NCBI GenBank assembly: GCA_030637025.1
Contig: DAOVVV010000019.1
Coordinates: 1 to 51,916, forward strand
Reading direction: 5' to 3'
Origin: Clostridia bacterium
Lineage (GTDB): Bacteria; CBDUZB01; JAGLHV01
DNA: 51,916 nt
The notes under the pieces were generated by a model. That model saw only the letters and a list, made by a program, of their open reading frames with translations, ran no database searches and was not told the DNA's origin. Made by a program: the position numbers and the translations under genes. This document shows positions 5,073 through 29,964 of the stretch, piece after piece (the first letter of the stretch is position 1; each line of letters starts with the position of its first letter).

Positions 5073-6376
5073 TTTATCTCCTCATAAATCAGAGAAATCT
5101 TTTTTGGTTTTCTCTTCGTAATCCTGCAACCGGAAAGAAACATCTCCTGAGCCAAATGTAATTTATCTTGATTATTAACATGAAAAGTAGCCAATGTTTC
5201 TCCCTTTTCCACTGTATCCCCTACTTTCTTATGTAACTGGATTCCTACCGCACAATCAATCAAACTATCCACTTTTTCTCTTCCTGATCCTAAAAGCATA
5301 GCTGCTACCCCAACTTTCCGGGCATCTAAATCTTGTAAATATCCTTGCTGGAGAGTTTGTATTTTTATTTTTTCCTTAGCCTGGGGTAAAATTTTGTCCG
5401 GATTATCAATTACCCGACTGTCCCCTCCCTGGGCAACTATCATCTGTTCAAATTTTTCTAACCCTTTCCCTTGTTCTATTAATTCTTTCAAGAGTTCTTT
5501 TCCCTCTTCAATATTCTTAACCCGATTTCCCTCTACCAGCATCCAACCCCCCAAACAAAAAATCAACTCTTTAAAATTTTCCGGGCCTTCTCCCTTTAAC
5601 ACATCAATAGCTTGTTTTATTTCCAAAGCATTCCCAACCATCCATCCTAAAGGATAATCCATATTAGTTATCAAAGCCATCGTCTTAATACCAAACTCTT
5701 TTCCCATTTCTATCATAAGTTCCGCTAATTTTTTAGCCCTATCCTTTTTTTTAATAAAAGAACCTTTTCCTACTTTCACATCCAGAATCAAAACATCTGC
5801 CCCGCCTGCTATTTTTTTGCTGATAATACTAGAGGCAATCAGAGGAATGGATTCTACCGTCGCTGTAGCATTGCGTAAGGCATAAATTTTCTTATCAGCA
5901 GGATTAATTTTGTCAGTCTGTCCAATTATGGCTACACCTATTTGTTTTATCTGTTCAATGAATTGTTGAATAGATAAATCTGTTTTAAAACCCGGAATAG
6001 ATTCTAATTTATCTACCGTTCCTCCTGTATGTCCTAATCCTCTACCACAAATCATCGGAACAGAAATCCCTGCTGCCGCGACTAAGGGAGCAAGAACCAG
6101 GGAAGTTCCATCCCCTACCCCTCCTGTAGAATGTTTGTCTACCCTTTTCCCTTCTATTCCCGTCCAGTTTATTATTTCTCCGGACAAAGCAAGTGCCTGA
6201 GTAAAAGAGCTAATCTCTTCTCTGCTCATTCCTTTCAAAAAAATTGCCATAATTAAAGCAGCTATTTGATACTCCGGAATTTCTTCCTCAACAAAGCCCT
6301 TTACTATATATCCTATTTCTTCCTTATTTAAAATGCCTCCGCTTCTTTTTTTACTGATAAGATTAAGTATTTGCAT
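5069..6376 (-). CDS. pdp: Pyrimidine-nucleoside/thymidine phosphorylase
   Basis: DKHSTGGVGD, GRGLGHTGGT.DKLESIPG, IASSIISKKIAGG. Confidence 0.93.
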   Translation of the reverse strand: MQILNLISKKRSGGILNKEEIGYIVKGFVEEEIPEYQIAALIMAIFLKGMSREEISSFTQALALSGEIINWTGIEGKRVDKHSTGGVGDGTSLVLAPLVAAAGISVPMICGRGLGHTGGTVDKLESIPGFKTDLSIQQFIEQIKQIGVAIIGQTDKINPADKKIYALRNATATVESIPLIASSIISKKIAGGADVLILDVKVGKGSFIKKKDRAKKLAELMIEMGKEFGIKTMALITNMDYPLGWMVGNALEIKQAIDVLKGEGPENFKELIFCLGGWMLVEGNRVKNIEEGKELLKELIEQGKGLEKFEQMIVAQGGDSRVIDNPDKILPQAKEKIKIQTLQQGYLQDLDARKVGVAAMLLGSGREKVDSLIDCAVGIQLHKKVGDTVEKGETLATFHVNNQDKLHLAQEMFLSGCRITKRKPKKISLIYEEIK

Positions 6377-6424
6377 TCATGCCCCCTTTTTTTTAAATAA
6401 AAAAAGCATTTCTGTCAAAATTCA

Positions 6425-7270
6425 TCAAATCTGAAACAAAATTTCTTCTATTAATTTTAATAAATTTCCTTTAAATTTATGCATATTTTTTATTATCCGG
6501 TGGTGAGAAAGAACAATTTTGCCCTTTCCTTTTTTTATTACATTAACATTAGCTATACAAGCCACCGCTAAAACCCGTATTTTTAAATATTCAGCCATAA
6601 TTACTTCCGGAACAGTAGACATTCCCACCAGGTCTCCACCAATTTTCCTCATTAATTTAATTTCCGCCGGTGTTTCGTAAACAGGCCCCTGAGTAGCAAC
6701 ATAGACCCCTTCTTTTATATTTATTTTTTGTTTTTGAGCACAACTTTTTGCTAAATTTATTAATTTCTTATCATAAACATTAGCCAGATTCAAGAATTGT
6801 ATACGCTGCTTATCTCCGCCAATTAAAGGATTATCTCCCATTAAATTTATATGGTCGGAAATTAGCACCACATCTCCGCAAGAAAAACTTTCATTAATTG
6901 CTCCGCTGGCATTAGTTATAATTAATGTTTTTATTCCCAACGATTTCATTATTCTTACAGGGTAGGTAATTTCCTGCATTGAATACCCTTCATAAAAATG
7001 GAATCTTCCTTGCATTACACACAAATTTTTTTCACATTTTTTATTTTTTCGGCTTTCCGGCCATTTACCTAAAATCAATTCTCCCTTATGTCCTTCTACC
7101 CTGGGTAAAGCAAAATAAGGAATATCCGCATAGGGTATTTTTACTTTTTGTTTTATTTTTTTTTCCAGGCCTTCCCAGCCGGAACCTAAAATTAAGCCTA
7201 TTTCAGGTTTAATTTTACTTTTACTTAAAATATAATCTTTAGTTTTTTTTACTTTTTTATTCCAATTCAT
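6425..7270 (-). CDS. punA: Purine-nucleoside phosphorylase (trimeric type)
   Basis: GLILGSG, GRFHFYEGY, GPVYETPAE, VGMSTVPEV. Confidence 0.92.
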   Translation of the reverse strand: MNWNKKVKKTKDYILSKSKIKPEIGLILGSGWEGLEKKIKQKVKIPYADIPYFALPRVEGHKGELILGKWPESRKNKKCEKNLCVMQGRFHFYEGYSMQEITYPVRIMKSLGIKTLIITNASGAINESFSCGDVVLISDHINLMGDNPLIGGDKQRIQFLNLANVYDKKLINLAKSCAQKQKINIKEGVYVATQGPVYETPAEIKLMRKIGGDLVGMSTVPEVIMAEYLKIRVLAVACIANVNVIKKGKGKIVLSHHRIIKNMHKFKGNLLKLIEEILFQI

Positions 7271-7367: not shown

Positions 7368-8777
7368 CTATTCGTCCATTTTTGCTGAATAAAAGAAAAT
7401 TCTATTTTTCCCTTTCTTTTTAGCTAAAACCATCGCTGAACGTGCTTGCGATATTAACTTCTCTTTTTCCCTTCCTTTCTCCGGATATACTGTACAACCA
7501 ATACTACAGGTAAGTTTTTCGCCTTCAGTCTTCCAGGGATATTCTTCTATTATTTTTTTTATCTTTAATCCTTCTCTTTCTACTTCTCTCCCATCCACGC
7601 CTATTTGAATTATGCCAAATTCATCTTCCCCTAATCGGGCAACGCAATCAATTTTCCGCATATTTTTCTTCAACAAAACACCAATCTTCTTCAAAATTTC
7701 GTCACTGTGATTATACCCAAACTTATCACTTATTTTATTAAAATTATCCATATTTATAATAAAAAGGCTAAAAGGAATTTCTTTCTGTCCGTTTTTTTTC
7801 ATTTCCTGTTCAAAAAATTTTTCAAAATAAATATTATTATAAATCTGAGTTAACGGGTCTAACCGGTTTTTTATTTTTACTTCTTCACAAAAACGGGCAT
7901 TGGTAATAGCAACTGATGCCTGAAGAGCCAGCAATTCTAAAATATCTCTATCTTCCTTAGAAAAAGAATTTACTTTATCACTGTCCACATTTAAAACCCC
8001 GATAAACCGTTCGCCGGAAAACAAAGGTGTAGCAAAAATACATTTTACTTCCCCATACGGCTCAATAAATCTCTTATCGCTTAATATATCTGAAATATAT
8101 AAAGACTTTTTATTTTCTGCTACCCACCCGGCTACTCCTTCACCTATTTTAAATTTAACTGGGGAAGGATTTTTTTCCCTATACCCTGAAAGAACTTTTA
8201 ATTCTAATTCTTCTTCTTTATTCAAAAGCATAATAGAAAAAGAATAATAATTAACCAGTGATAAAACCTCATCGGCAATAAGAATCAAAAGTTTGTCCAA
8301 ATCCAACATTTTATTCATTGCCGAAGAAATAGCCAGGAGCATAGATAATTCCTGTATTTTCCTATCTAAAATACTTTTTTGCTTTATAATAATAGCTTCA
8401 TGAGTTGCTAAATATAATTCCGAAACCTTAAAAATAATACGAAATAAAAGCTTTTCAAGTTCTTTTAAAATTAATTCTCCGGAAATATCATTTTTCTCAA
8501 ATTTATCTTTTAACTTAAACGCTATTGCTTCTCTAAAATCTAAAAAGGCTTCCTGAATAGAAGAAATCTTTATATTTCTATAAAGCGGTATTTCAGAAAT
8601 TTCTTCTACTAAATTCTCCAATTTTTGATAGTTTTCTTTTTCTATTATTTCCATTATTCTATCAATATATTTTAAAAGACCCTGTCCATATTCTTTTTCC
8701 TTTAAAATTTCTGTATATTTTGCAATTAAACCGGCTTTATCTTGTTCTATTATTTCCTGCCACTTCATATTTTTCAT
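7368..8777 (-). CDS. Helical N-terminal (RsbRD_N-like) + GAF + degenerate GGDEF protein
   Basis: GAF segment GEGVAGWVA...IGVLNVDS...F; DPLTQIYN; RKIDCVARLGEDEF; TCSIG. Confidence 0.85.
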   Translation of the reverse strand: MKNMKWQEIIEQDKAGLIAKYTEILKEKEYGQGLLKYIDRIMEIIEKENYQKLENLVEEISEIPLYRNIKISSIQEAFLDFREAIAFKLKDKFEKNDISGELILKELEKLLFRIIFKVSELYLATHEAIIIKQKSILDRKIQELSMLLAISSAMNKMLDLDKLLILIADEVLSLVNYYSFSIMLLNKEEELELKVLSGYREKNPSPVKFKIGEGVAGWVAENKKSLYISDILSDKRFIEPYGEVKCIFATPLFSGERFIGVLNVDSDKVNSFSKEDRDILELLALQASVAITNARFCEEVKIKNRLDPLTQIYNNIYFEKFFEQEMKKNGQKEIPFSLFIINMDNFNKISDKFGYNHSDEILKKIGVLLKKNMRKIDCVARLGEDEFGIIQIGVDGREVEREGLKIKKIIEEYPWKTEGEKLTCSIGCTVYPEKGREKEKLISQARSAMVLAKKKGKNRIFFYSAKMDE

Positions 8778-9901: not shown

Positions 9902-9918
9902 AATAAAATATCTTCCTT

Positions 9919-10731
9919 TTAAACTAATTCCTTTAAAGCCCGGTCTGTCTCTTCCTTGCTGGGAGCTTTACCATGCCAGCCGGCTACATTTTCCATAAAA
10001 GATATGCCTTTTCCTTTTATAGTATGAGCGATTATTACCGTTGGCTTATTTTTTTCTTCCTGGGCAGCTTTAAAAGCATTGAGTATTTCCTGCATTTTAT
10101 GCCCATCAATTTCTATAGTATTCCACCCAAAAGAATTCCATTTTTCCCTTAAAGGCTCAATGTTCATCACTTCTTTCAGGCACCCATCTATTTGCAATCC
10201 ATTATTATCAACAACAGCACATAAATTGTTTAATCGATAATGAGCACCAGCCATTGCTGCCTCCCAAATTTGTCCTTCATCAAGCTCTCCATCTCCCATT
10301 AAACAATACACTCTTTGTAATTTATTATCTAATTTAAATCCTAAAGCATTCCCAACAGATATAGATAAACCCTGCCCTAAGGAACCACTGGAAACCTCTA
10401 TCCCCGGTAATTTTTTATCTTTTCCCGGATGCCCTTGTAAACGGCTATTTAATTTACGTAAAGTAAATAATTCCTCTCGATTAAAATATCCGGCCCGAGC
10501 CAAACAAGCATATTGAACAGGACAACTGTGACCTTTGGATAAAATAAAACGATCTCTCTCAATCCAATTGGGTTTTTGCGGATCATGCTTTAAAACAGAA
10601 AAATATAAAGCAACCATAATCTCTGTGGAAGACAATGATCCTCCCGGATGTCCTGATTTAGATTCCTGCAACATTAAAACAATGTCTCTTCTTATCTGAG
10701 TAGCCTTTTTTTCTAATTCCTTATTTTCCAA
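9919..10731 (-). CDS. tktA: Transketolase, N-terminal (TPP-binding) subunit
   Basis: GHPGGSLS, RDRFILSKGH, GSLGQG, GDGE..EG TPP motif, WHGKAP. Confidence 0.92.
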   Translation of the reverse strand: MENKELEKKATQIRRDIVLMLQESKSGHPGGSLSSTEIMVALYFSVLKHDPQKPNWIERDRFILSKGHSCPVQYACLARAGYFNREELFTLRKLNSRLQGHPGKDKKLPGIEVSSGSLGQGLSISVGNALGFKLDNKLQRVYCLMGDGELDEGQIWEAAMAGAHYRLNNLCAVVDNNGLQIDGCLKEVMNIEPLREKWNSFGWNTIEIDGHKMQEILNAFKAAQEEKNKPTVIIAHTIKGKGISFMENVAGWHGKAPSKEETDRALKELV

Positions 10732-10778
10732 TTTAAATTACTCTCCACCTAAAATTCAAAATTTCTATTTTAAATTTA

Positions 10779-13046
10779 TTATTTTTTATGACTTACTAAA
10801 ACAATATCTAAAACCAGATTCAAAAATCTAAATTGTTTGCCTATATCTGCGAAAGGAACAAATTGTAAAGAAATTTTAGCATCGCTCAAAAATGCGTTTA
10901 AGCCGGTAGAAAACTCCGCCTCTTTTAATTCTTTACCCTTTGGCGGACCTAAAACTATAACAATTTTTAACCCGGCTTTTTTACATAAATCAACAAAAAA
11001 CTTATATTCTACCTTTTCATAAGGTATATATTCTTTTTCAAATACTGCTTTTAATTGAAATTTTAATTTATGCTTTTCAATAACACTTTCGAACTCCTTT
11101 TTTATTTTTTTTAATTCTTCTTCATGCTCCTGAGGATAAAAATAACCTACTTTAACTACTTTAACAGTTTTACCGTTTGTAGTTACTTCCTCTATAGTTG
11201 CTTTTTGTGTAGAATAAATTTCTTCTACTAAAGAAACTTTTTCTATCGGTTTTTCCTCTATTGTTTTTTCCTCTTTTTCCTCAGGCTTTTCCTCAGGCTT
11301 TTTCTCAGGCTTTTTCTCAGGCTTTTTCTCAGGCTTTTTCTCAGGCTTTTCCTCAGGCTTTTCCTCAGGCTTTTTCTCAGGCTTTTCCTCAGGCTTTTCC
11401 TCAGGCTTTTCCTCGTATTTTTGTTCCGGTTCTCTTCTTTTATCCTTAAAACTAAACACTTCTCTCTCTAAAAATTCTTCCGCTCTCTTTTTTTCTTTTT
11501 CTTCGATTGATTTTTCCTTTATTTCTGTTTTTTGCTTTCCTTCTTCTGGACTCTCCTTTTCAGAAGGAAGAAGTTCTTCCAACAAAGTTTTTATCGTTTC
11601 CAAATTTACTTCCTGTTTAGTAAGCTGAACATAAGCCTCTATTCTTTTTAAAAAACCTTCTAATTCGCGAATATTAGACTTTAATCTTCCGGCAATATAA
11701 AGAAGAATATCGTCGTCCAGTTTCATGTTTTGAGCTTCTTCTTTCTTTTTTAAAATAGCTACCCGTGTCTCCAAATTAGGCGACTTAATATCCGCAGTTA
11801 ATCCCCATTCAAACCTTGATTTCAACCGCTCTTCTACATCTACTAATTTTTTGGGTGGTTTATCACTGGTAATAACTATTTGCTTTTGTTCATCATATAA
11901 AATATTAAAAGTGTGAAAAAATTCTTCCTGTGTAGATTCTGCTTCTGCTAAAAACTGAATATCATCTACCAATAAAATATCAAATTTTCTGCAATGACTT
12001 CGAAAATTCTTTACTGTTCCCTGCCGAATAGCATCGATCACATCTTCTATAAATTTTTCTGCAGTAATATACAACACTTTTAAATTTTTATTTTCCCCCC
12101 GGGCAAAATGCCCTATAGCATGTAAAAGGTGCGTTTTTCCCAAACCTACTCCACCATAAATAAATAACGGATTATAAATTTTTCCGGGGTTTTCTGCTAC
12201 AGCTAAAGCAGCCGCATGAGTAAATCGACTATTAGGGCCAACGACAAAATTATTGAAGGTATACCTCTGATTTAATTTTACTTCTCCAAAAAGTTTTTCG
12301 CTCTCTTCTTTTTCTTTTTCACTATTTTGATTTACTTCAACATCTAATAAATTTTTTTCTCTTAAAAGATCCTCTATTTCCTCACTTCTTTGAGGTGTCC
12401 CGGTTTTTTGTTTGACTTTTTTAGTTTGTTCTAATAAAAAGTCCTCGTCTATTTCTTCTAGTTCCTTTTGCTCCTTCACTTTTTCTTTTACTTTTTCTTT
12501 TACTTTTTCTTTCACTTCTTCTTTTATTTCTTCTTTTATTTCTTCTTTTACTTCCTCTTTTACTTCCTCTTTTACTTCCTCTTTTACTTCCTCTTTTATT
12601 TCTTCTTTTATTTCTTCTTTTGCTTCCTCTTTTACTTCCCCTTTTACTTCCTCTTTTATCTCTTCTTTTGCTTTCTCTTTTACCCCTTCTTTTTTGATTG
12701 TCTTTTTTTCATAATTTACTATATTTTCTAAAATATATTCCAACGATGGGGTAGTTTCTGTTTCAGCAGAATTTTCTACACCTTCTTTATTTTCTTTTTC
12801 CTTAGACTTCATAGGACAAATTTTTTGTAAAGTGTTTTCTATTCTCCCCTTTTCTTCCTTATTTACATTATAAACATAGAAAACCCAATTAAACAATTTA
12901 CTTATTGGAACAAAGGATTTACCACAATCTTTACCAACTTTCTTTATTAAATCGAAAAGATCCTCTTCATTTCCATCTATTCTTATCTTATATCTGCGGG
13001 CATCTTTTTCACATGGAGCATAAATAAACTCCCATTTTTTAATCAT
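10779..13046 (-). CDS. DnaA-like AAA+ ATPase lacking domain IV, with repeat linkers and unrecognised N- and C-terminal domains
   Basis: YTFNNFVVG, NPLFIYGGVGLGKTHL, DDIQFL, QEEFFHTFN, RLKSRFEWG, NIRELEG; no RQIAMYL/GGRDHTTV helix-turn-helix. Confidence 0.85.
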   Translation of the reverse strand: MIKKWEFIYAPCEKDARRYKIRIDGNEEDLFDLIKKVGKDCGKSFVPISKLFNWVFYVYNVNKEEKGRIENTLQKICPMKSKEKENKEGVENSAETETTPSLEYILENIVNYEKKTIKKEGVKEKAKEEIKEEVKGEVKEEAKEEIKEEIKEEVKEEVKEEVKEEVKEEIKEEIKEEVKEKVKEKVKEKVKEQKELEEIDEDFLLEQTKKVKQKTGTPQRSEEIEDLLREKNLLDVEVNQNSEKEKEESEKLFGEVKLNQRYTFNNFVVGPNSRFTHAAALAVAENPGKIYNPLFIYGGVGLGKTHLLHAIGHFARGENKNLKVLYITAEKFIEDVIDAIRQGTVKNFRSHCRKFDILLVDDIQFLAEAESTQEEFFHTFNILYDEQKQIVITSDKPPKKLVDVEERLKSRFEWGLTADIKSPNLETRVAILKKKEEAQNMKLDDDILLYIAGRLKSNIRELEGFLKRIEAYVQLTKQEVNLETIKTLLEELLPSEKESPEEGKQKTEIKEKSIEEKEKKRAEEFLEREVFSFKDKRREPEQKYEEKPEEKPEEKPEKKPEEKPEEKPEKKPEKKPEKKPEKKPEEKPEEKEEKTIEEKPIEKVSLVEEIYSTQKATIEEVTTNGKTVKVVKVGYFYPQEHEEELKKIKKEFESVIEKHKLKFQLKAVFEKEYIPYEKVEYKFFVDLCKKAGLKIVIVLGPPKGKELKEAEFSTGLNAFLSDAKISLQFVPFADIGKQFRFLNLVLDIVLVSHKK
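11275..11414. repeat. 12-bp tandem repeat TTTT(C/T)CTCAGGC x11, encoding E(E/K)KP
   Basis: TCAGGC recurs every 12 nt from 11281 to 11401. Confidence 0.95.
12471..12692. repeat. Degenerate 12-bp tandem repeat, about 18 copies, encoding KE(E/K)(V/I/A)
   Basis: TTTTACTTCCTC-like units; protein reads KEEVKEEVKEEI... Confidence 0.9.
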
Positions 13047-13486: not shown

Positions 13487-14563
13487 TTAATTTTCCCCTT
13501 TAGAAATCCCTCTCATTTTTAACATTACATTATCCGGATTAGTAGCATACTCCAGAGCATTCTCTAAAGATATCTTTTTTCCCATATATAACTGATAAAT
13601 CGCCTGATCAAAAGTTTTCATCCCATAAAATTCTCCCTGCTCCATTACTTTGTATAAATCTTTATTTTGAGCATCAAGAATAAGCTTTTTTATTAAAGAT
13701 GTCCCTATTAATATTTCAGTCGCAGGAACTACACTTTCACCATCTATCCCGGGAATCAACCTTTGCGCCACAATGCCACGCAACACATTAGCTAATTGTA
13801 TTCTAGCTTCTGTGGTATTTGCAGAAGGATAAAGACTAATTATTCGGTCGAGGGTCTGTACTGCATCCAGAGTATGAATGGTAGAAAAAACTAAATGCCC
13901 TGTCTCAGCAGCAAGGATACCTTGTCGGATGGTTTCAAAATCACGCATTTCTCCAAGAACGATGACATCCGGATCCTGCCTCAAAATATATCTTAAGGCA
14001 CTAGAAAAAGAATTGGTATCTTCCCCCACTTCTCTCTGACTAATCGTGGCTTTTTCATCCTGATGATAAAACTCAATAGGATCTTCAACCGTAATTATAT
14101 TACATGCTCTATTTTTATTAATATAATCTATCATTGTATTCATCGTTGTAGTTTTCCCTGCCCCTGTTACCCCTGTTATTAAAATTAGCCCCCTTTGTTC
14201 CTGGCATAATTTTATTAATGTCTCCATAGGTAAATTTAAGTCCTCAAACTTTTTCATTTCTAAAGGAATAACCCTTAAAGTAAGAGCGATAGACCCTTTT
14301 TGACGATAAACATTTACCCGAAAACGGGAAACCCCGGAAATAGTATGTGAAAAATCTAATTCTTTTTCCCGTTCAAAGATTTGCCTGTGCAGCGGATTCA
14401 TCAATTTATAAGCAATTTCTTCTATATGTTTAGGTGTAAATCCTTCAAAAGCAGTGGCAATTAATTTCCCATTAATTCTAACTAATGGTGAAACTCCGGC
14501 TTTAAAATGAATATCCGAAATACCTTTTTTAATCATTAATTGTAAGATTTCATTAATATCCAT
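13487..14563 (-). CDS. pilT: PilT/PilU-family type IV pilus retraction ATPase
   Basis: SDIHF, RFRVNVY, GVTGAGKTTT, TVEDPIEF, LRQDPDVI..GEMRD, AETGHLVFSTIHT. Confidence 0.9.
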   Translation of the reverse strand: MDINEILQLMIKKGISDIHFKAGVSPLVRINGKLIATAFEGFTPKHIEEIAYKLMNPLHRQIFEREKELDFSHTISGVSRFRVNVYRQKGSIALTLRVIPLEMKKFEDLNLPMETLIKLCQEQRGLILITGVTGAGKTTTMNTMIDYINKNRACNIITVEDPIEFYHQDEKATISQREVGEDTNSFSSALRYILRQDPDVIVLGEMRDFETIRQGILAAETGHLVFSTIHTLDAVQTLDRIISLYPSANTTEARIQLANVLRGIVAQRLIPGIDGESVVPATEILIGTSLIKKLILDAQNKDLYKVMEQGEFYGMKTFDQAIYQLYMGKKISLENALEYATNPDNVMLKMRGISKGEN

Positions 14564-24617: not shown

Positions 24618-25367
24618 CTATATGAAAAAAATATATTTATTCATATCAGTTTTTATAAATATAACTCCTTTTAAAGCAAAGACATACAAAATTTCAGATA
24701 CATCTGATTCTGAAAAACCGGTTTTTTTTACTATTTCATCTTTTTTGGTTTTCCCATCTATTAAAGAAATTACTTCTTTCTCTTTGTCAAAAAGAAGTCC
24801 TCTTTGAGATTTCAGCTCTTCTTTCATTGTAAAAATTAAAGATTTTTCAGCAACAATATTTTTTTTTAATATTTCCGCCTTTTTATGCCACATAATTCCT
24901 CTACTAACTAAAACATTAATATCCGCTGAAAACTGTATTTTCTCTGTTTTCTTCAAAAAACTATCATCTAAATATTCTTTTTTAAACGCGTAAACTCCCT
25001 TTCCCCACGTATATACATCGTAAACCTCTTCTAAGAGCTGACGTTTTAATACTTCTACAAATTCATTCTGTGAAAAAATTTTTTGTTGCATCAAAATTTC
25101 TTCCATCGATTTATTCGTTTTACTTTGAATTTCTTTTATTTCTTTTATTTTCTCCTCTGAAATTTTTTTAAATCCTAAAATTATTCTTTCCAGTGGTATT
25201 TTTCTTGAAGAAGAAACCCAGCATAAATCTCCTTCTCTAAAATAAAAACTTTTTTCTACTTTATTTTCTAAATTAGTGATAACTAAAAAACCTGTTTCTT
25301 TGTTTTCATAAAAAGTTTTTAAAATTTTACTCAAATCAACCGGATTTAATTTTCCCTTAATATCCAC
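24618..25367 (-). CDS. DUF4388 (PatA_N-like) domain protein with possible C-terminal wHTH
   Basis: IKGKL..VDL..IL......TG.L.I, F.F.EG, W.KG.Y.F pattern; C-terminal LIDGKT...I. Confidence 0.75.
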   Translation of the reverse strand: MDIKGKLNPVDLSKILKTFYENKETGFLVITNLENKVEKSFYFREGDLCWVSSSRKIPLERIILGFKKISEEKIKEIKEIQSKTNKSMEEILMQQKIFSQNEFVEVLKRQLLEEVYDVYTWGKGVYAFKKEYLDDSFLKKTEKIQFSADINVLVSRGIMWHKKAEILKKNIVAEKSLIFTMKEELKSQRGLLFDKEKEVISLIDGKTKKDEIVKKTGFSESDVSEILYVFALKGVIFIKTDMNKYIFFI

Positions 25368-25465
25368 TCTTTGTTTTTCTCTCTTTTCTATTGAAAAATA
25401 CCCGCATCATATAAACATGTTTTTAAAAACTATTATCTCATAAAAATATTTACAAATACTATTTT

Positions 25466-26710
25466 CTACAACTTCATTTCCTGCAATTTATTAATTAGTT
25501 TAAACGCTTCCCGCAAGTTTTTTTCATCTAACAATTTTTTTACTTCATTTAACATATCCACCGCTTGTTGATTTTGTTTCTTTTCTGCTCTAGGAATTAA
25601 AAAATCTACTGTTTCTCTAATAACCCCGATTATTTCCTGCAGGTCTTTTGATTTTTTAATCTTTTCTTTAAAAATTTTTACAGCTTTTGAATGGTCTTCT
25701 TTTAGCCTGGTTTTTTCAGCATATAAATCCGTTTCCGCAAAAACTAAAATATCTTTAAGTAATTCCTTTGCCTTTGATACTGTTATTTCTCCGCCTTTTA
25801 ATGTTAGCTGAGAAATTGCAATTAACCTGTTTAAAACTCCTTCTAATTCTCTTACACTATTAGAAATATTTTGAGCCAGGAAAAAAATAACTTCATCAGA
25901 AAGTTTGATTTTGTTTTCATTTAAACTAAGTTTCTTTTTTAAAATAGCTACTCTGGTTTCCAAATCCGGGGGCTGAATATCTGTTATTATTCCCCCTGCT
26001 AACCTTGTTCTTAATCGTTCTTCAATATTTTTAAACTCTTCCGGGGGACAATCACTGGTAATTACAATCTGTTTATTCGCTTGTGATAAAGCATTGAAAG
26101 TATAAAAAAATTCTTCTTGCGCTGCTTCTTTTCCAATTAAAAACTGAATATCATCAATTAAAAAAACATCATTATTTCTGTACATATCCTGTAATTCGTC
26201 TACCGTATTGTTTTTTATTGCGTTAACTATATCTTTAACAAAACGTTCTGCATTAATATAAAATACTTTTGTTAATGGACTATTCTCAGCTAAATAATTG
26301 CCTATCGCATTTACTAAATGAGTTTTACCTAATCCCGTATGACTGTAAATAAGTAACGGATTATATTTACTCCCGGGAAATTTAGCCACTGCCACCGCTA
26401 CTGCATAGGTAAAACTATTTCCGCTACCTATTACGAAATTTTCAAACATAAATTTTTTCATTAAAGAAAGTCTTTTTTCTTTTAAGCAGGGTCTTTCACC
26501 TAAATCATATTTCTCCTCGCTTTTACCTTCAACAGGAAAAGACCTCCTTTCATATTGATAAAAAAGAACTTTCTCAATATCTTTTTTTCTACTAACAAAA
26601 GGCAAAATACAATAATCCGTTACTCTCCGTAAACCGTCAACAACTTCATCACTCACAGGATCCAACATACTTACAGCAAGGACATTATTAGATTTAGCAA
26701 TGGGAACCAT
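25466..26710 (-). CDS. DnaA-like AAA+ ATPase with N-terminal T2SSE_N/MshEN segment and no domain IV (3' part of a frameshifted gene starting at 26969)
   Basis: VPI....L.VSMLDP...VVD.L (T2SSE_N); FENFVIG, NPLLIYSHTGLGKTHL, IDDIQFL, RLRTRL, VRELEG; helical C-terminus. Confidence 0.85.
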   Translation of the reverse strand: MVPIAKSNNVLAVSMLDPVSDEVVDGLRRVTDYCILPFVSRKKDIEKVLFYQYERRSFPVEGKSEEKYDLGERPCLKEKRLSLMKKFMFENFVIGSGNSFTYAVAVAVAKFPGSKYNPLLIYSHTGLGKTHLVNAIGNYLAENSPLTKVFYINAERFVKDIVNAIKNNTVDELQDMYRNNDVFLIDDIQFLIGKEAAQEEFFYTFNALSQANKQIVITSDCPPEEFKNIEERLRTRLAGGIITDIQPPDLETRVAILKKKLSLNENKIKLSDEVIFFLAQNISNSVRELEGVLNRLIAISQLTLKGGEITVSKAKELLKDILVFAETDLYAEKTRLKEDHSKAVKIFKEKIKKSKDLQEIIGVIRETVDFLIPRAEKKQNQQAVDMLNEVKKLLDEKNLREAFKLINKLQEMKL

Positions 26711-26795
26711 ACAAAATTTTTTTGCTATATAATACGGTATCTGTTTTATAATGCCCTTTCCTATTTTATAATTTGCTAAATCGAAATAAACATAT

Positions 26796-26969
26796 TTATA
26801 TTTTTTTTTTCAAAAAATCTATCAAATCATCTTCTGAAAGACAATCATTTTTTATTAAATAGCCAACACTCGTTTCTCCTGCTCCAGCAATTGCCGCCTT
26901 TGCTTTTTGAAAGCAATCATTAGTTATTATCTTTTCCTGTTGAAGAATAACATCTAATTTCCTTACCAT
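26796..26969 (-). pseudogene. 57-aa MshEN-like 5' fragment, joined to 25466-26710 if one A is removed from an A10 run
   Basis: Translated by hand: MVRKLDVILQQEKIITNDCFQKAKAAIAGAGETSVGYLIKNDCLSEDDLIDFLKKKI*; with A9 it continues YKYVYFDLANYKIGKGIIKQIPYYIAKKFC-MVPI. Confidence 0.85.
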
Positions 26970-27059
26970 AAATTACCTTGCCTCAAAACCTTATCTTTTA
27001 TACAACTTCCATATTTAAAAAATTAACCCGCATCTGAAAATTTTAAAAGACACCTAAAC

Positions 27060-27755
27060 TTATTTTGACTGTTTGGCTATTTCCTCAACTACCTTGTTTA
27101 GAGAAAAAATCAAAGACCCCAGTCTAGCCATAGGTGTTGATAAAGAAACCAGAAATAATCTACTGTTTATTTTACAAAAAGAAACAAATCCTTTTTCATC
27201 ATTTACAAACATTTGAACAATTGTGGGCCTTTTTATTTTTTTATAATCTCTATAAAAATTAAAAAAAAGTTCGGGCACAGATAAAACAGTATCGTCTTTC
27301 AATTTACCACTTAATATCCGGAAAATAATTTCCCCCTCAAAATCAACAATTATCGCTCCCAATATTTGATTATCATCCGATACTAATTGCTTTAAAATTC
27401 TTTCCATTTTTTCTCTTATCGGCAAAACTTTCTCTTTTTCTTTAACCCTTTTTTCATCAATCCTTTTTATCCCTTCCATAAAAAGTTTCTGAATACTCGT
27501 TTTTATTGTTTCCTGACTTGACTGTTCGTTTATTTTAAATTCAAATTCTCCTTTCTCCCATAATAACATTTCAAAAATAACTTCCTGCCCAATTAAATTT
27601 TTTAAGGTTGCATGAACGACTTTCCCGGATTTAAAATATATTCTCCCTGTTTGATTATTATTTATTATTTCCAGGCACCCTGCTTTCCCCGCCATTTCTA
27701 AAATTTGAATTGTATCTGTTAAATTAACATCTTCCAGCGATCCGCGCAAACTCAT
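27060..27755 (-). CDS. DUF4388 + Roadblock/LC7 fusion protein
   Basis: MSLRGSLEDVNLTDTIQ...GRIYF..G.VVHA...WEKGEFEF; C-terminal GAIIVDFEGEII...ARLG. Confidence 0.8.
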   Translation of the reverse strand: MSLRGSLEDVNLTDTIQILEMAGKAGCLEIINNNQTGRIYFKSGKVVHATLKNLIGQEVIFEMLLWEKGEFEFKINEQSSQETIKTSIQKLFMEGIKRIDEKRVKEKEKVLPIREKMERILKQLVSDDNQILGAIIVDFEGEIIFRILSGKLKDDTVLSVPELFFNFYRDYKKIKRPTIVQMFVNDEKGFVSFCKINSRLFLVSLSTPMARLGSLIFSLNKVVEEIAKQSK

Positions 27756-27797
27756 TTTCTCCTCATCTCCTTTCCTAAACAGTTCAGTTATCTATTA

Positions 27798-28382
27798 TTA
27801 TTCTATTTCGAATTTTTCAATAACCAATTTACAAATTGCTTTAATTGTGGCAAAAACCCCTTTTCCTGTAGTAGCAATAGACTCAAAAGAAGGTTTTTTA
27901 TGTATATTTATCACTTCTTCCAAATGATTAAGTGTATTTATATCGGGTAAATCCCGTTTATTATATTGTATGGCACAGGGTAAAGTGTCAAAATCCAATT
28001 TATATTCTTTTAATCTATCCAACAGTTCCTTATAGCTATTTATGTTCTCCTTTAACCGCTGTTTCTGTGAATCAACAATAAAAGCAACTCCGTCTGCACC
28101 TTTTAAAATTATTTTTCGGCTCGCTTCATAATATTCCTGTCCGGGAACGGTATAAAGATGAAATCGGGTAGTAAACCCTTTTATTTTCCCTAAATCCAAA
28201 GGAAGAAAATCAAAAAATAAAGTGCGTTCCTGATCGGTCTTTAATGAAACCATTTTCCCTTTATAGGAAGGTGCTATCGATTGGTAAATATATTCCAGAT
28301 TAGTAGTCTTTCCCCCAAAGCCAGGACCGTAATACACAATTTTGAAATTAATTTCCCGTAACGCATAATTAAAGGACGCCAT
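27798..28382 (-). CDS. mglA: MglA small Ras-like GTPase
   Basis: REINFKIVYYGPGFGGKTTNL, RTLFFDFLPL, TVPGQ, NKRDLP. Confidence 0.95.
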   Translation of the reverse strand: MASFNYALREINFKIVYYGPGFGGKTTNLEYIYQSIAPSYKGKMVSLKTDQERTLFFDFLPLDLGKIKGFTTRFHLYTVPGQEYYEASRKIILKGADGVAFIVDSQKQRLKENINSYKELLDRLKEYKLDFDTLPCAIQYNKRDLPDINTLNHLEEVINIHKKPSFESIATTGKGVFATIKAICKLVIEKFEIE

Positions 28383-28915
28383 TATTCTTCCTTTTTTTTC
28401 TGACCATCAGGAGTAAAATTAGAATCCGAATCAGAAAAAATAGTATCTATTAAATTAGTAGCATATTCCTTGAAATCCGATAACTCTATTTTCACTCTTT
28501 CTTCTTCTTTTTTCCCTTCTTTAATTAAAGAATTTGTTACCTTCCGGGATACTGATTTTGCATAAAATCTAACCTTTCCTACACTTCCAAGATTTTCAAA
28601 CACTACCACCATCATCGCAATAGAACCCAACAAAGAAATATGCACATGCCGTTTTTCTCCCTGTTGAAGAAGAATACTGAATTCCTGTTCTCCCAGAAGA
28701 AAGGCAACTTCTTTTGTCGCAGCAAAAGACCCTGCCACTAATGCCGCTAAAGCAGTAGTGTTAATAAAAGAAACATCCCCTCTATTGGTTATTAATTGCC
28801 CGTCTTTGGTAATAAGAATTATACATATCGCTTTAGTTTGAACTATAAAATCATCTAAAAATTTATTAATTTGTTCTACCTGAGATGAAAAAGTAATCAT
28901 TTTATGATTCTCCAT
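28382..28915 (-). CDS. mglB: MglB roadblock GTPase-activating protein
   Basis: LITKDGQLI, LAALVAGSFAAT..VA.LLGEQEF.IL.QQG; translationally coupled to mglA. Confidence 0.9.
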   Translation of the reverse strand: MENHKMITFSSQVEQINKFLDDFIVQTKAICIILITKDGQLITNRGDVSFINTTALAALVAGSFAATKEVAFLLGEQEFSILLQQGEKRHVHISLLGSIAMMVVVFENLGSVGKVRFYAKSVSRKVTNSLIKEGKKEEERVKIELSDFKEYATNLIDTIFSDSDSNFTPDGQKKKEE

Positions 28916-28959
28916 TGCTTGATTTTTCTCCTTTTATATAATAAAATGAACCGCTCCGT

Positions 28960-29784
28960 TTAATTCTTAATCTGTAATATTATTTTTTTTAAAACATTCT
29001 CTGCTAAATTTACTCCCGGAGAGAGTTCATTTAAAAGACAGGACTGCAAAAGCACTGCATCACATAAAATATTTATCCAAAAAGGGAAAACAATTTTATC
29101 TTTTTTATCTAAAAATTCAAAAATTTTTTCTTTTACTTTTTCAGAAAAAATTTCCTGCCCCCCCCCGGACAATTCAAGATTTTGATTAATAAATTCTTTC
29201 ATCTCCTCAAAACTAAAAGGCTCCATGTTGTATTGCTTTGTTATCTTTTTAAACTTTTCGTTTTTTTCTATCCATTTATTAATTTCCGGTAACCCTAATA
29301 AAACAAAACTAACTATCCTTCCTCCATTTTCATCTTTTAATTCCGTTAAACGAAACAGGCTAAGAAGTGTTTTTTCTCCGGCAATATTATCACTATTATC
29401 AATTATAAAAAGTGTTCGTTTCTTTTCTGTATTATATTTCTCCTCTATAAAATCGGTAATACTTTTTATTTTTGATCCTGAACTATTAACCTGCCTTACT
29501 ATTCCTTTAGAAAGTGCCTCAAAATCAGTCTGTTCACCGGTAACAATCAGCAAAGCAGCATTATAATCATCTTCCCTTAGTAACTCTCTTAAAAGTTTTA
29601 TTCCTAAAGTGCTTTTTCCTGAACCCTTCTTTCCCGTAATTGTTAGGAAAGGAACCTTAAATTGTTTTATGGTTTCTAAGATTTCTTTTTCTATTTTATA
29701 TTTTCGTTCACTTTCATAACAAAGATTTACCTCTAAACCGGTTTCAAAAGGCAATTCTTTGAATCCAAAAAAATCTTTATACAT
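28960..29784 (-). CDS. ExeA/GspA/MshM-like AAA ATPase
   Basis: N-terminal MY..FFGF.E.PF, Walker A GKKGSGKST, Walker B LFIIDN, LLGLPE. Confidence 0.8.
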   Translation of the reverse strand: MYKDFFGFKELPFETGLEVNLCYESERKYKIEKEILETIKQFKVPFLTITGKKGSGKSTLGIKLLRELLREDDYNAALLIVTGEQTDFEALSKGIVRQVNSSGSKIKSITDFIEEKYNTEKKRTLFIIDNSDNIAGEKTLLSLFRLTELKDENGGRIVSFVLLGLPEINKWIEKNEKFKKITKQYNMEPFSFEEMKEFINQNLELSGGGQEIFSEKVKEKIFEFLDKKDKIVFPFWINILCDAVLLQSCLLNELSPGVNLAENVLKKIILQIKN

Positions 29785-29935
29785 AATCCCTCAAGTATTA
29801 GTTATTACTGTATTCAAATAAATAACTATTATAATTTGCTTAAAAGAATATTTCTTTACTATTTTGAATTTAAAATTTATGGTTTGTTCCTTGAAGTTAT
29901 CTTGTTTTAGGTAGTTTTTCTATTCAGTAACAATC

Positions 29936-29964
29936 AATATAATATATAAAACAAAAAAAGTCAA
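29936..29964 (-). promoter_or_regulatory. Putative sigma70 promoter of the mgl operon
   Basis: Minus strand TTGACT-N17-TATATT. Confidence 0.6.

Follow-up and report, generated by a model that had tools for sequence, protein, structure and literature searches.

We analyzed a cluster of six genes at 24618-29964, on the minus strand, of a 51,916-nucleotide stretch of DNA (contig DAOVVV010000019.1 of assembly GCA_030637025.1, from a Clostridia bacterium), which is called the window below. [quoted passage not shown] We lean, with only a little more belief than doubt, toward the view that this DnaA-derived fusion is an ATP-dependent oligomerizing adaptor that links MglA polarity to the base of the type IV pilus, and not a replication protein. 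The grounds for this view are that all the motifs for nucleotide binding, hydrolysis and the arginine finger are kept in the fusion, that domains I and IV of DnaA are missing from it, and that the genome has a canonical DnaA gene at another place. The position of the fusion among polarity genes here, and beside pilus or polarity genes in distant bacteria, suggests a role outside DNA replication.

The cluster had been pointed out in an earlier annotation made from the letters of the DNA (the sequence-only reading). Six consecutive minus-strand open reading frames (ORFs) are present, and all the domains stated for them were recovered by Pfam, PDB and fold searches; the profile scan gave Bac_DnaA without Bac_DnaA_C, MshEN, DUF4388, Robl_LC7 and AAA_22, as predicted. 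The features are as follows.

29936-29964, minus strand: promoter-like TTGACT-N17-TATATT, 10 of 12 positions matching, in the 205-bp gap after a CinA-like gene
28960-29784, minus strand: ExeA/MshM-like P-loop ATPase, 274 aa (AAA_22)
28382-28915, minus strand: MglB, Roadblock/LC7 GTPase-activating protein, 177 aa (Robl_LC7; 6izw_B)
27798-28382, minus strand: MglA small GTPase, 194 aa (Myxococcus xanthus MglA, 6hjh)
27060-27755, minus strand: DUF4388 (PATAN)-Roadblock protein, 231 aa (DUF4388 and a fold match)
25466-26969, minus strand: MshEN-DnaA domain III AAA+ protein, about 500 aa when a run of A described below has nine letters (Bac_DnaA, MshEN)
25466-26710, minus strand: the same fusion as assembled, a 414-aa ORF truncated by a frameshift
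24618-25367, minus strand: DUF4388 (PATAN) protein with a C-terminal winged helix, 249 aa (DUF4388)

In Pfam, the window ORF at 25466-26710 gave Bac_DnaA with an E-value (E) of 1.3e-62, together with a partial MshEN. The orthologue in the congener G002 showed MshEN at residues 57-135 (E 3e-11) and Bac_DnaA at residues 163-324 (E 2.3e-65). Its residues 1-152 aligned to residues 1-156 of M. xanthus PilB (3jc8; E 4.5e-17), and its residues 156-430 to Bacillus subtilis DnaA (8btg; E 1.1e-78). Domain IV (Bac_DnaA_C) was found neither in the window ORF nor in the G002 protein nor anywhere on the contig, and the fusion gave no match to DnaA domain I (DnaA_N, PF11638). The T2SSE ATPase domain (PF00437) is also absent from the fusion, and seven T2SSE matches lie elsewhere in the genome. 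That is, the protein has the MshEN/T2SSE_N domain of PilB, GspE and MshE without their T2SSE domain, and domain III of DnaA without domains I and IV. Its score against TIGR00362, the model of DnaA, was 337.5 bits, just below the cut-off of 343.9; that against TIGR03420, the model of Hda, was 94 bits where the cut-off is 194.8, so that it does not qualify as Hda. Hda is also a short protein consisting of domain III alone, whereas the fusion has about 500 aa and an MshEN domain. In public records the proteins of this family are named only 'ATP-binding protein' or 'DnaA/Hda family protein'.

We aligned nine fusions, which share 34-62% identity. In all of them the Walker A motif (GLGKTHL), the Walker B motif (DD), sensor I (SD), the box VII arginines R312 and R316 and the sensor II arginine R367 were invariant. 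The AAA+ core was 50-55% identical to DnaA cores and 51% identical to the genome's own DnaA. This canonical DnaA is encoded on contig C53 in one 492-aa frame carrying Bac_DnaA and Bac_DnaA_C; the genome has four PF08299 matches, on C53, C26 and C6. A tail of about 90 residues is lineage-specific, being present among the nine aligned fusions in the G002 protein and P0004 only, and the 95-aa C-terminal tail gave no usable match in the ESM Atlas.

The sequence-only reading had described the domains of the fusion correctly, but a frameshift in the window copy had escaped it. Three-frame translation showed that a run of ten A (minus strand, 26801-26810) breaks the reading frame of the MshEN-DnaA gene; there is a 57-aa N-terminal ORF from the ATG at 26969, in which the MshEN domain begins. 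When 26300-27300 was compared with the contigs of four public sequencing runs from two studies, all four had one letter fewer at 26801, that is, nine A, and in three of the four a contig of 10.6-18.7 kb covered the entire interval with no other difference. The congeners G001-G003 have unbroken 499-aa open frames with 75-77% identity, and the G002 gene encodes 494 aa. Because the nine-A form occurs in all four runs and the frames of the three congeners are intact, the break is an error of the assembly; at most it could be a minority variant, for which the contigs alone leave room. The same evidence rules out a programmed frameshift, phase variation or a pseudogene at this run. The intact G002 orthologue was used as the query in the searches that called for the full length. 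Other homopolymers of the same genome may hold similar false frameshifts. The runs containing this DNA are labeled as cold seep metagenomes.

A broken copy could also mean that no joint function exists, and that a decaying or selfish DnaA paralogue merely lies beside mglBA. The genome does have a further DnaA paralogue without domain IV, the third Bac_DnaA protein, which is encoded in the window at 10779-13046 (minus strand). It has 755 aa, with Bac_DnaA at residues 258-418 and flanks of about 250 and 340 residues without an assigned domain; its gene lies two genes downstream of that of a PilT-family ATPase (13487-14563), and it is kept in the three congeners as frames of 716-729 aa. Against such decay stand the absence of the frameshift from the contigs of the runs and from the congeners, the invariance of the catalytic motifs at 34-62% identity, and the recurrence of a similar pilus/polarity neighborhood in nine GTDB families. 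We therefore consider a mere chance neighbor to be very unlikely indeed. The 755-aa protein scored 349.2 against TIGR00362; since this is above the curated DnaA cut-off of 343.9, it may be mislabeled as a replication initiator. This is of practical concern for annotation, as the scores of such paralogues can lie at or above that cut-off.

Evidence for an adaptor at the pilus base also comes from the genes that accompany the fusions in other genomes. Our genome sample consisted of 401 genomes from about 274 GTDB families, of which 397 are outside the genus; in this sample the genus has no relatives between the ranks of 'same genus' and 'same domain'. G001 and G002 have the six genes in the same order as the window, which shows the gene order to be conserved in these two relatives, and the locus of G003 is cut by the end of its contig. 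In a lineage with 61-77% identity, the fusion P0004, the PATAN-Roadblock protein P0274 and the MglA P0280 each come from a 62,652-base contig, which is most simply one and the same contig. With the profile of the fusion N-terminus, fusions were found, among the matches listed, in at least nine genomes outside the genus, belonging to six GTDB families, and in the three congeners. Here a fusion was called if the profile covered past the MshEN-DnaA junction (position 187 or beyond), and the number is a lower bound, since 150 matches were listed and 872 more exist. The neighborhoods in the nine distant genomes are given below.

G304: ExeA-like gene (AAA_22 and PG_binding_1), TPR, PilB, PilC, PilT, unknown gene, fusion, TPR
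G172: three MshEN or MshEN-DnaA paralogues, giant fusion, TonB_C, PilB, unknown gene, PilT
G325: as G172; the contig ends inside the giant gene
G148 and G302: TPR, fusion, PilM-PilN
G339: TPR, PilT, DUF4388, fusion, REC, histidine kinase, PilM-PilN
G081: fusion, PilB, then PilS, PilR, PilC
G389: fusion, PilB, PilT, PilS, PilR, PilC
G243: fusion, PilB, PilT

In eight of these nine genomes the fusion gene lies no more than two genes from pilB, pilT, pilC or pilM-N, and in the ninth (G325) the locus is cut by the contig end. The pil cluster of G304 that holds the fusion opens with an ExeA homologue carrying PG_binding_1, and in G339 a DUF4388 gene stands directly before the fusion. TPR genes flank the fusion in G304, G148, G302 and G339.

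A search for mglA near genes of domain-IV-less DnaA proteins gave the complementary picture. Two further families have such a DnaA-like gene next to mglB-mglA and PATAN genes; one of them contains G007, G176 and G329, and the other contains G021. Including the genus of the window, the arrangement of mglBA, PATAN and a DnaA-like gene occurs in three GTDB families and 8 of the 401 genomes. The arrangements, with that of a second contig of G325, are as follows.

G007 (L161, C21): DUF4388-TPR, TPR-Roadblock, MglB, MglA, DnaA-like, DUF4388-TPR
G021: REC-DUF4388, MglB, MglA, DUF4388, 121-aa protein, DnaA-like (359 aa)
G325, second contig: possible DUF4388, MglB, MglA, DUF4388-Roadblock-like; the MshEN-DnaA genes are on the other contig

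The DnaA-like protein of G007 has 453 aa, with Bac_DnaA at residues 9-157 and no MshEN. In G176 and G329, judged by coordinates, about 40-100 bp separate the DnaA-like gene from mglA. The TPR-Roadblock gene of the G007 locus is at 9917-10930 and its PATAN-TPR genes are at 5306-6925 and 10998-12263; these TPR fusions recall the TPR adaptor SgmX of Myxococcus. The sequence-only reading had claimed that a pilus/polarity module took over a DnaA AAA+ core, here one lacking domain IV, and the neighborhoods kept in other lineages uphold this claim.

From these observations we propose the following scheme. The locus would encode a polarity module for the control of type IV pili, consisting of the MglA switch, its GAP MglB, the PATAN-Roadblock protein, a second PATAN protein, the ExeA/MshM-like ATPase and the DnaA-derived AAA+ protein. 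In this module the fusion may act as an ATP-dependent, self-oligomerizing switch or scaffold and not as a replication initiator. Its PilB-like MshEN domain would carry it to the partners of PilB, which may be PilM/PilC at the pilus base or the PATAN proteins, and the Roadblock half of the PATAN-Roadblock protein might connect it to MglA and MglB. The GTP state of MglA would then decide where or when the platform is assembled and pili are formed. We infer every binding step in this scheme, and the predicted complex of the PATAN-Roadblock protein with the MshEN domain scored 0.12, the mark being 0.32, which speaks neither for nor against such a contact. In other systems, PixE interacts through its PATAN domain with PilC-NTD and with residues 1-366 of PilB1, its N-terminal half, in the yeast two-hybrid assay (bioRxiv 10.1101/2021.06.11.447907, in excerpt), MglA-GTP of M. 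xanthus recruits PilB to the pole through SgmX (PMC11580455, in excerpt), and PATAN genes are known neighbors of mglA and mglB (PMC4316618, in excerpt).

Several observations weigh against the view that the fusion links MglA to the pilus base. The first concerns gene location: in the genus of the window the fusion gene is apart from the pil cluster, on a different contig. A full type IVa pilus cluster lies on contig C74, with pilB, pilT, pilC and pilM identified by Pfam, and with pilN-pilQ labeled by position only, no search having been made for them. The second concerns MglA itself. MglA is present in 3 of the 9 distant fusion genomes as against 148 of the 397 genomes outside the genus, and no MglA or MglB gene was found at a distance of about 8 kb or less from any of these nine fusions. 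Because carriers of the fusion show no enrichment of MglA at the genome level, the MglA link is specific to some lineages, and we reject the idea that the fusion family always requires MglA as its partner. The MglA link is seen in the lineages with an mglBA-PATAN context and fails across the fusion family. The third is that the operon structure is unproven from the sequence at hand, although co-transcription of the six genes is plausible. The last two concern the descent of the AAA+ core and its DNA contacts.

The trees of the AAA+ core were quick ones (LG+G4, with SH-aLRT support only), and they are poorly resolved. In them the true DnaAs, the 755-aa protein and four domains of tandem DnaA proteins (described below) formed one branch with a support of 96, and the window fusion grouped with P0004, P0149, P0137, P0129 and the G304 protein (support 89), outside this branch. 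When the G007 and G021 proteins were added, 15 fusions, the domains of giant fusions, five tandem domains and both of these MglA-linked proteins stood on one branch with a support of 95, separate from the true DnaAs; the G007 and G021 proteins were on long branches. Forcing all 15 fusions into one clade gave a log-likelihood (lnL) 20.1 higher than the free search, with a p-value of 0.82 in the approximately unbiased test (p-AU), and a single old origin of the fusions would be compatible with the data and is mildly favored. Forcing the fusions of the window lineage together with the genome's own DnaA lowered lnL by 17.3, which was not rejected (p-AU 0.25), and a recent origin from DnaA may therefore have taken place.

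This last result also bears on the idea that the fusion, like Hda or a filament cap, co-assembles with true DnaA and tunes initiation to polarity or surface signals. The identity to DnaA domain III of about 50% (51% to the genome's own DnaA), the intact box VII and sensor II, and the TIGR00362 score just under the cut-off would all suit such a partner of DnaA. The neighborhoods do not: a replication gene was found in 0 of 13, and all of them hold pil, mgl or PATAN genes except the contig-cut locus of G325, which shows only further MshEN-DnaA paralogues. The low score against the Hda model speaks against it as well, and the MglA-linked homologue of G007 is about 12 residues shorter in the segment that separates its two Walker motifs and that holds the initiator-specific motif in DnaA. 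We found no evidence for the coupling of replication to polarity that the sequence-only reading had raised, and we regard it as unlikely.

A role related to DNA could also be played at the pilus. Type IV pili mediate DNA uptake in many bacteria, and the fusion adjoins pilB and pilT in five loci; a pilus-base ATPase might bind single-stranded DNA (ssDNA) and handle incoming DNA in natural transformation. The residues of B. subtilis DnaA that contact DNA are known from the structure of DnaA at the origin (PMC10721633, in excerpt), and we mapped those for ssDNA by hand from the G002/8btg alignment. In G002, of the hydrophobic residues, I190 is replaced by V and I193 is kept as I; K222 and E223, which contact the backbone, and E228 are unchanged. 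Because several of the ssDNA contacts are kept, the fusion may have a DNA-related role, and this is the remaining point that counts against a pure adaptor. In contrast, N187 and R202, which capture bases, are replaced, by K and H in G002, and the window has Q at the second position. The MglA/PATAN context indicates polarity, the initiator-specific region of the G007 homologue is shortened, and no competence genes were noticed in the annotated neighborhoods, where no search was aimed at them. We judge DNA handling during transformation to be decidedly improbable.

Another explanation is offered by the MshEN domain, an established receptor of cyclic di-GMP (c-di-GMP) (PMC5013675, in excerpt). 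If it bound c-di-GMP in the fusion and gated the assembly of the AAA+ core, the presence of MglA would be incidental. Near-canonical motifs are indeed present in three of 21 fusion-type sequences (P0121, G172_409 and G325_423) when the 24-residue motif is relaxed, and the window encodes a GAF-GGDEF diguanylate cyclase at 7368-8777 (minus strand), 16 kb from the cluster. However, the strict motif occurs in 0 of the 21, and the motif is absent in both its strict and relaxed forms from the N-terminus of the window protein, from its three close relatives (G002, P0002 and P0003) and from P0004. The glycines at positions 3 and 10 of the motif are replaced. Sensing of c-di-GMP by the MshEN domain has probably been lost in the window lineage, and we do not think it likely that a c-di-GMP effector explains the cluster.

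Turning back to the module proposed above, we examined its other proteins. The product of 27798-28382 is the sole MglA of the genome. MglA proteins are marked by a P-loop, an intrinsic arginine in RTLFFDF, TxxGQ in the place of DxxGQ, and NKxD, and the alignment shows GPGxxGKTT, RTLFFDFLP, LYTVPGQ and NKRD. The protein matched M. xanthus MglA (6hjh) over residues 2-190 with E 2e-68, and in Pfam it gave only weak Arf/Ras matches. Its full-length similarity, these motifs and the adjoining gene of the GAP identify it as an MglA. MglB gave Robl_LC7 in Pfam (E 1e-8) and matched M. xanthus MglB (6izw_B) over residues 6-163 with E 4.6e-20; its score against the NCBIfam equivalog NF052242 was 73.3, below the cut-off of 200. 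The first gene of the cluster encodes a protein with AAA_22 (E 2.7e-11), which matched TIGR03015, the XrtA/PEP-CTERM-associated ATPase, over the full length with E 1.9e-24 and 86.5 bits, below the cut-off of 324.5. AAA_22 was its only Pfam domain, so that it lacks the peptidoglycan-binding domain of ExeA/GspA; it is possibly an MshM-like form without that domain.

Both PATAN genes of the genome are in the cluster, and no others were found. The PF14332 cut-off is 25 bits, and both proteins are above it: the 27060-27755 protein has DUF4388 at residues 4-103 (E 2e-25, 89.7 bits), and the 24618-25367 protein gave E 6.2e-11 and 42.8 bits. Neither of them carries Response_reg in Pfam, and they are thus not of the PatA type (PATAN-REC). 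The second half of the 27060-27755 protein was not detected as Roadblock by Pfam, and hhalign gave no match to MglB (probability 0.5, both alignments being very shallow). Its residues 115-228 matched the Roadblock structure 9jue_D with E 0.0017. In the predicted model (mean pLDDT, the per-residue confidence, 62; C-terminal half mostly 60-80) this half has the order alpha-beta-beta-alpha-beta-beta-beta-alpha, and a fold search with the model returned Roadblock, MglB and MglC chains with TM(target) of 0.64-0.84 and E of 2.6e-7 to 1.2e-4. Judged by the model, the C-terminal half is a Roadblock domain.

The model of the 24618-25367 protein is of low confidence (pLDDT 53) and places a winged helix at residues 161-241 (Z up to 9.8). 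In the same low-confidence model, a helical insert in the PATAN domain (about residues 52-116) resembles the N-terminal four-helix part that binds c-di-GMP in MshE (5htl, Z 7.4) and PilF (8pdk, Z 6.8), and NF053729, c-di-GMP_motif, matched residues 67-110 with E 3.9e-5, below its cut-off. The published c-di-GMP motif did not fit this insert by eye, the motif search not having been run there.

One of the known systems closest to the module is the MglA/MglB module of M. xanthus, with effectors that include SgmX, FrzS, SopA, MglC and RomR/RomX. The two share close MglA and MglB homologues, an extra Roadblock protein (MglC in Myxococcus) and the presumed output to the type IV pilus motor. Unlike in Myxococcus, the Roadblock paralogue of the window is fused to PATAN, and no SgmX, FrzS, RomR or RomX was identified in the window cluster. 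We know of no counterpart of the DnaA-derived AAA+ ATPase in the polarity system of Myxococcus. The cyanobacterial PatA-type proteins PixE, PixG and LsiR, which bind PilB1 and PilC, have in common with the window the PATAN domain and a genetic link to a PilB-type N-terminal domain, and the co-occurrence of PATAN with MglA/MglB is shared as well (PMC4316618, in excerpt). However, the PATAN proteins of the window have no receiver domain, although the neighbor in G021 has one, and the PilB-like domain is joined to a DnaA AAA+ core and not to a T2SSE motor.

Like DnaA, Hda and DnaC, the fusion has a domain III that includes both Walker motifs, sensor I, the arginine finger of box VII and sensor II; its identity to DnaA cores is 50-55%. 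It differs from them in having no domain I, II or IV, in the origin of its N-terminus from a secretion or pilus ATPase, and in its pilus/polarity context. With MshE, PilB and GspE it shares the N-terminal MshEN domain, but it has no T2SSE ATPase domain and its c-di-GMP motif is degenerate. The operon of the MSHA pilus has the order mshM (ExeA-like ATPase), mshN (TPR), mshE and mshG. The cluster of G304 likewise reads ExeA-like, TPR, PilB-like and PilC-like before the fusion, and the first gene of the window cluster also encodes an AAA_22 ATPase; this ExeA-like gene, however, precedes mglB and mglA, and its product lacks the peptidoglycan-binding domain.

In the full-text literature, with supplementary tables and the 2006 PATAN paper outside the scope, no account came up of a DnaA-like protein belonging to pil or mgl clusters, in agreement with the sequence-only reading, which knew of no characterized system of this composition. 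The word DnaA is absent from a 2024 review of PilB cofactors, and DnaA is not among the partner domains of MshEN named in the main text of PMC5013675, its supplementary tables being outside the scope.

It is an open question how MglA-type switches and PATAN proteins come to act on the pilus motor. For Myxococcus, the step in which SgmX delivers PilB to the machine has yet to be identified (PMC11580455, in excerpt). A fusion that carries the docking domain of PilB is a concrete and testable candidate for this link. If our view of it is true, the DnaA AAA+ module would not be confined to replication. More tentatively, and with doubt slightly outweighing belief, we suppose that a whole family of DnaA-core ATPases has come to organize the cell pole and the base of the type IV pilus in a nucleotide-dependent way, under MglA/PATAN control in some lineages and under the control of c-di-GMP or PilB partners in others. 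This family is spread over at least nine GTDB families and includes tandem proteins as well as giants of about 2000 aa. If so, this would be the first non-replicative role of a DnaA-type initiator module, whose filament-forming chemistry would be used for building or timing a polar platform.

The members of this family were collected by several searches. A word-based search of 5.8 billion proteins gave the combination of MshEN and Bac_DnaA, among the best 120 of 8000 scored, only in P0001-P0004, which have at least 61% identity to the G002 query; P0005, the truncated ORF of the window itself, showed Bac_DnaA only. An exhaustive HMMER search of 1.84 billion representatives added further fusions of about 400 aa (P0129, P0137, P0138 and P0149), giants of 1876 and 1990 aa, and many tandem DnaA-DnaA proteins of 550-700 aa. 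All 80 loci of an alignment-based search of the genome contigs were ordinary DnaA genes, and all 14 loci of a metagenome search with the P0004 N-terminus matched only the start of DnaA domain III.

Two larger forms were also seen. The giants P0121, P0122 and L059:7943-13924 have 1876-1993 aa, and L058:8416-12342 is cut at 1308 aa by the contig end; they begin with MshEN and a DnaA domain III, after which a charged helical linker of great length leads to a second DnaA domain III. In G172 and G325 the giant comes after a series of two or three smaller paralogues of the MshEN or MshEN-DnaA type. Tandem proteins with two DnaA domains III, about 550-700 aa long and without domain IV, form a large family (P0123-P0141 and P0006-P0009), one member of which, from a metagenome-assembled genome of Gemmatimonadaceae, is named 'DnaA/Hda family protein'.

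The layout of the cluster remains to be described. The gaps between successive genes are 44, -1, 42, 90 and 98 bp, the start of mglA overlapping the stop of mglB by one base (28382). The TTGACT-N17-TATATT sequence, which the sequence-only reading had taken as the promoter, is present and is the best minus-strand promoter-like match in the region. The region has 31 promoter-like sites as compared with 24.7 +/- 5.3 in shuffled sequences; since this count is not above that of the shuffles, the match is at chance level and carries little weight. Three terminator-like matches, two of them on the coding strand, all lie inside ORFs. A single operon had also been argued from the common orientation of the six genes. 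This orientation is uninformative, because the minus strand carries every long ORF in the window: 41 of the 53 ORFs that reach 100 aa lie on it, and the 12 plus-strand ones are short and nearly all overlap a longer minus-strand ORF. The GC skew is strongly negative across the 52-kb window (-0.16 to -0.37), and the GC content is about 28-40%.

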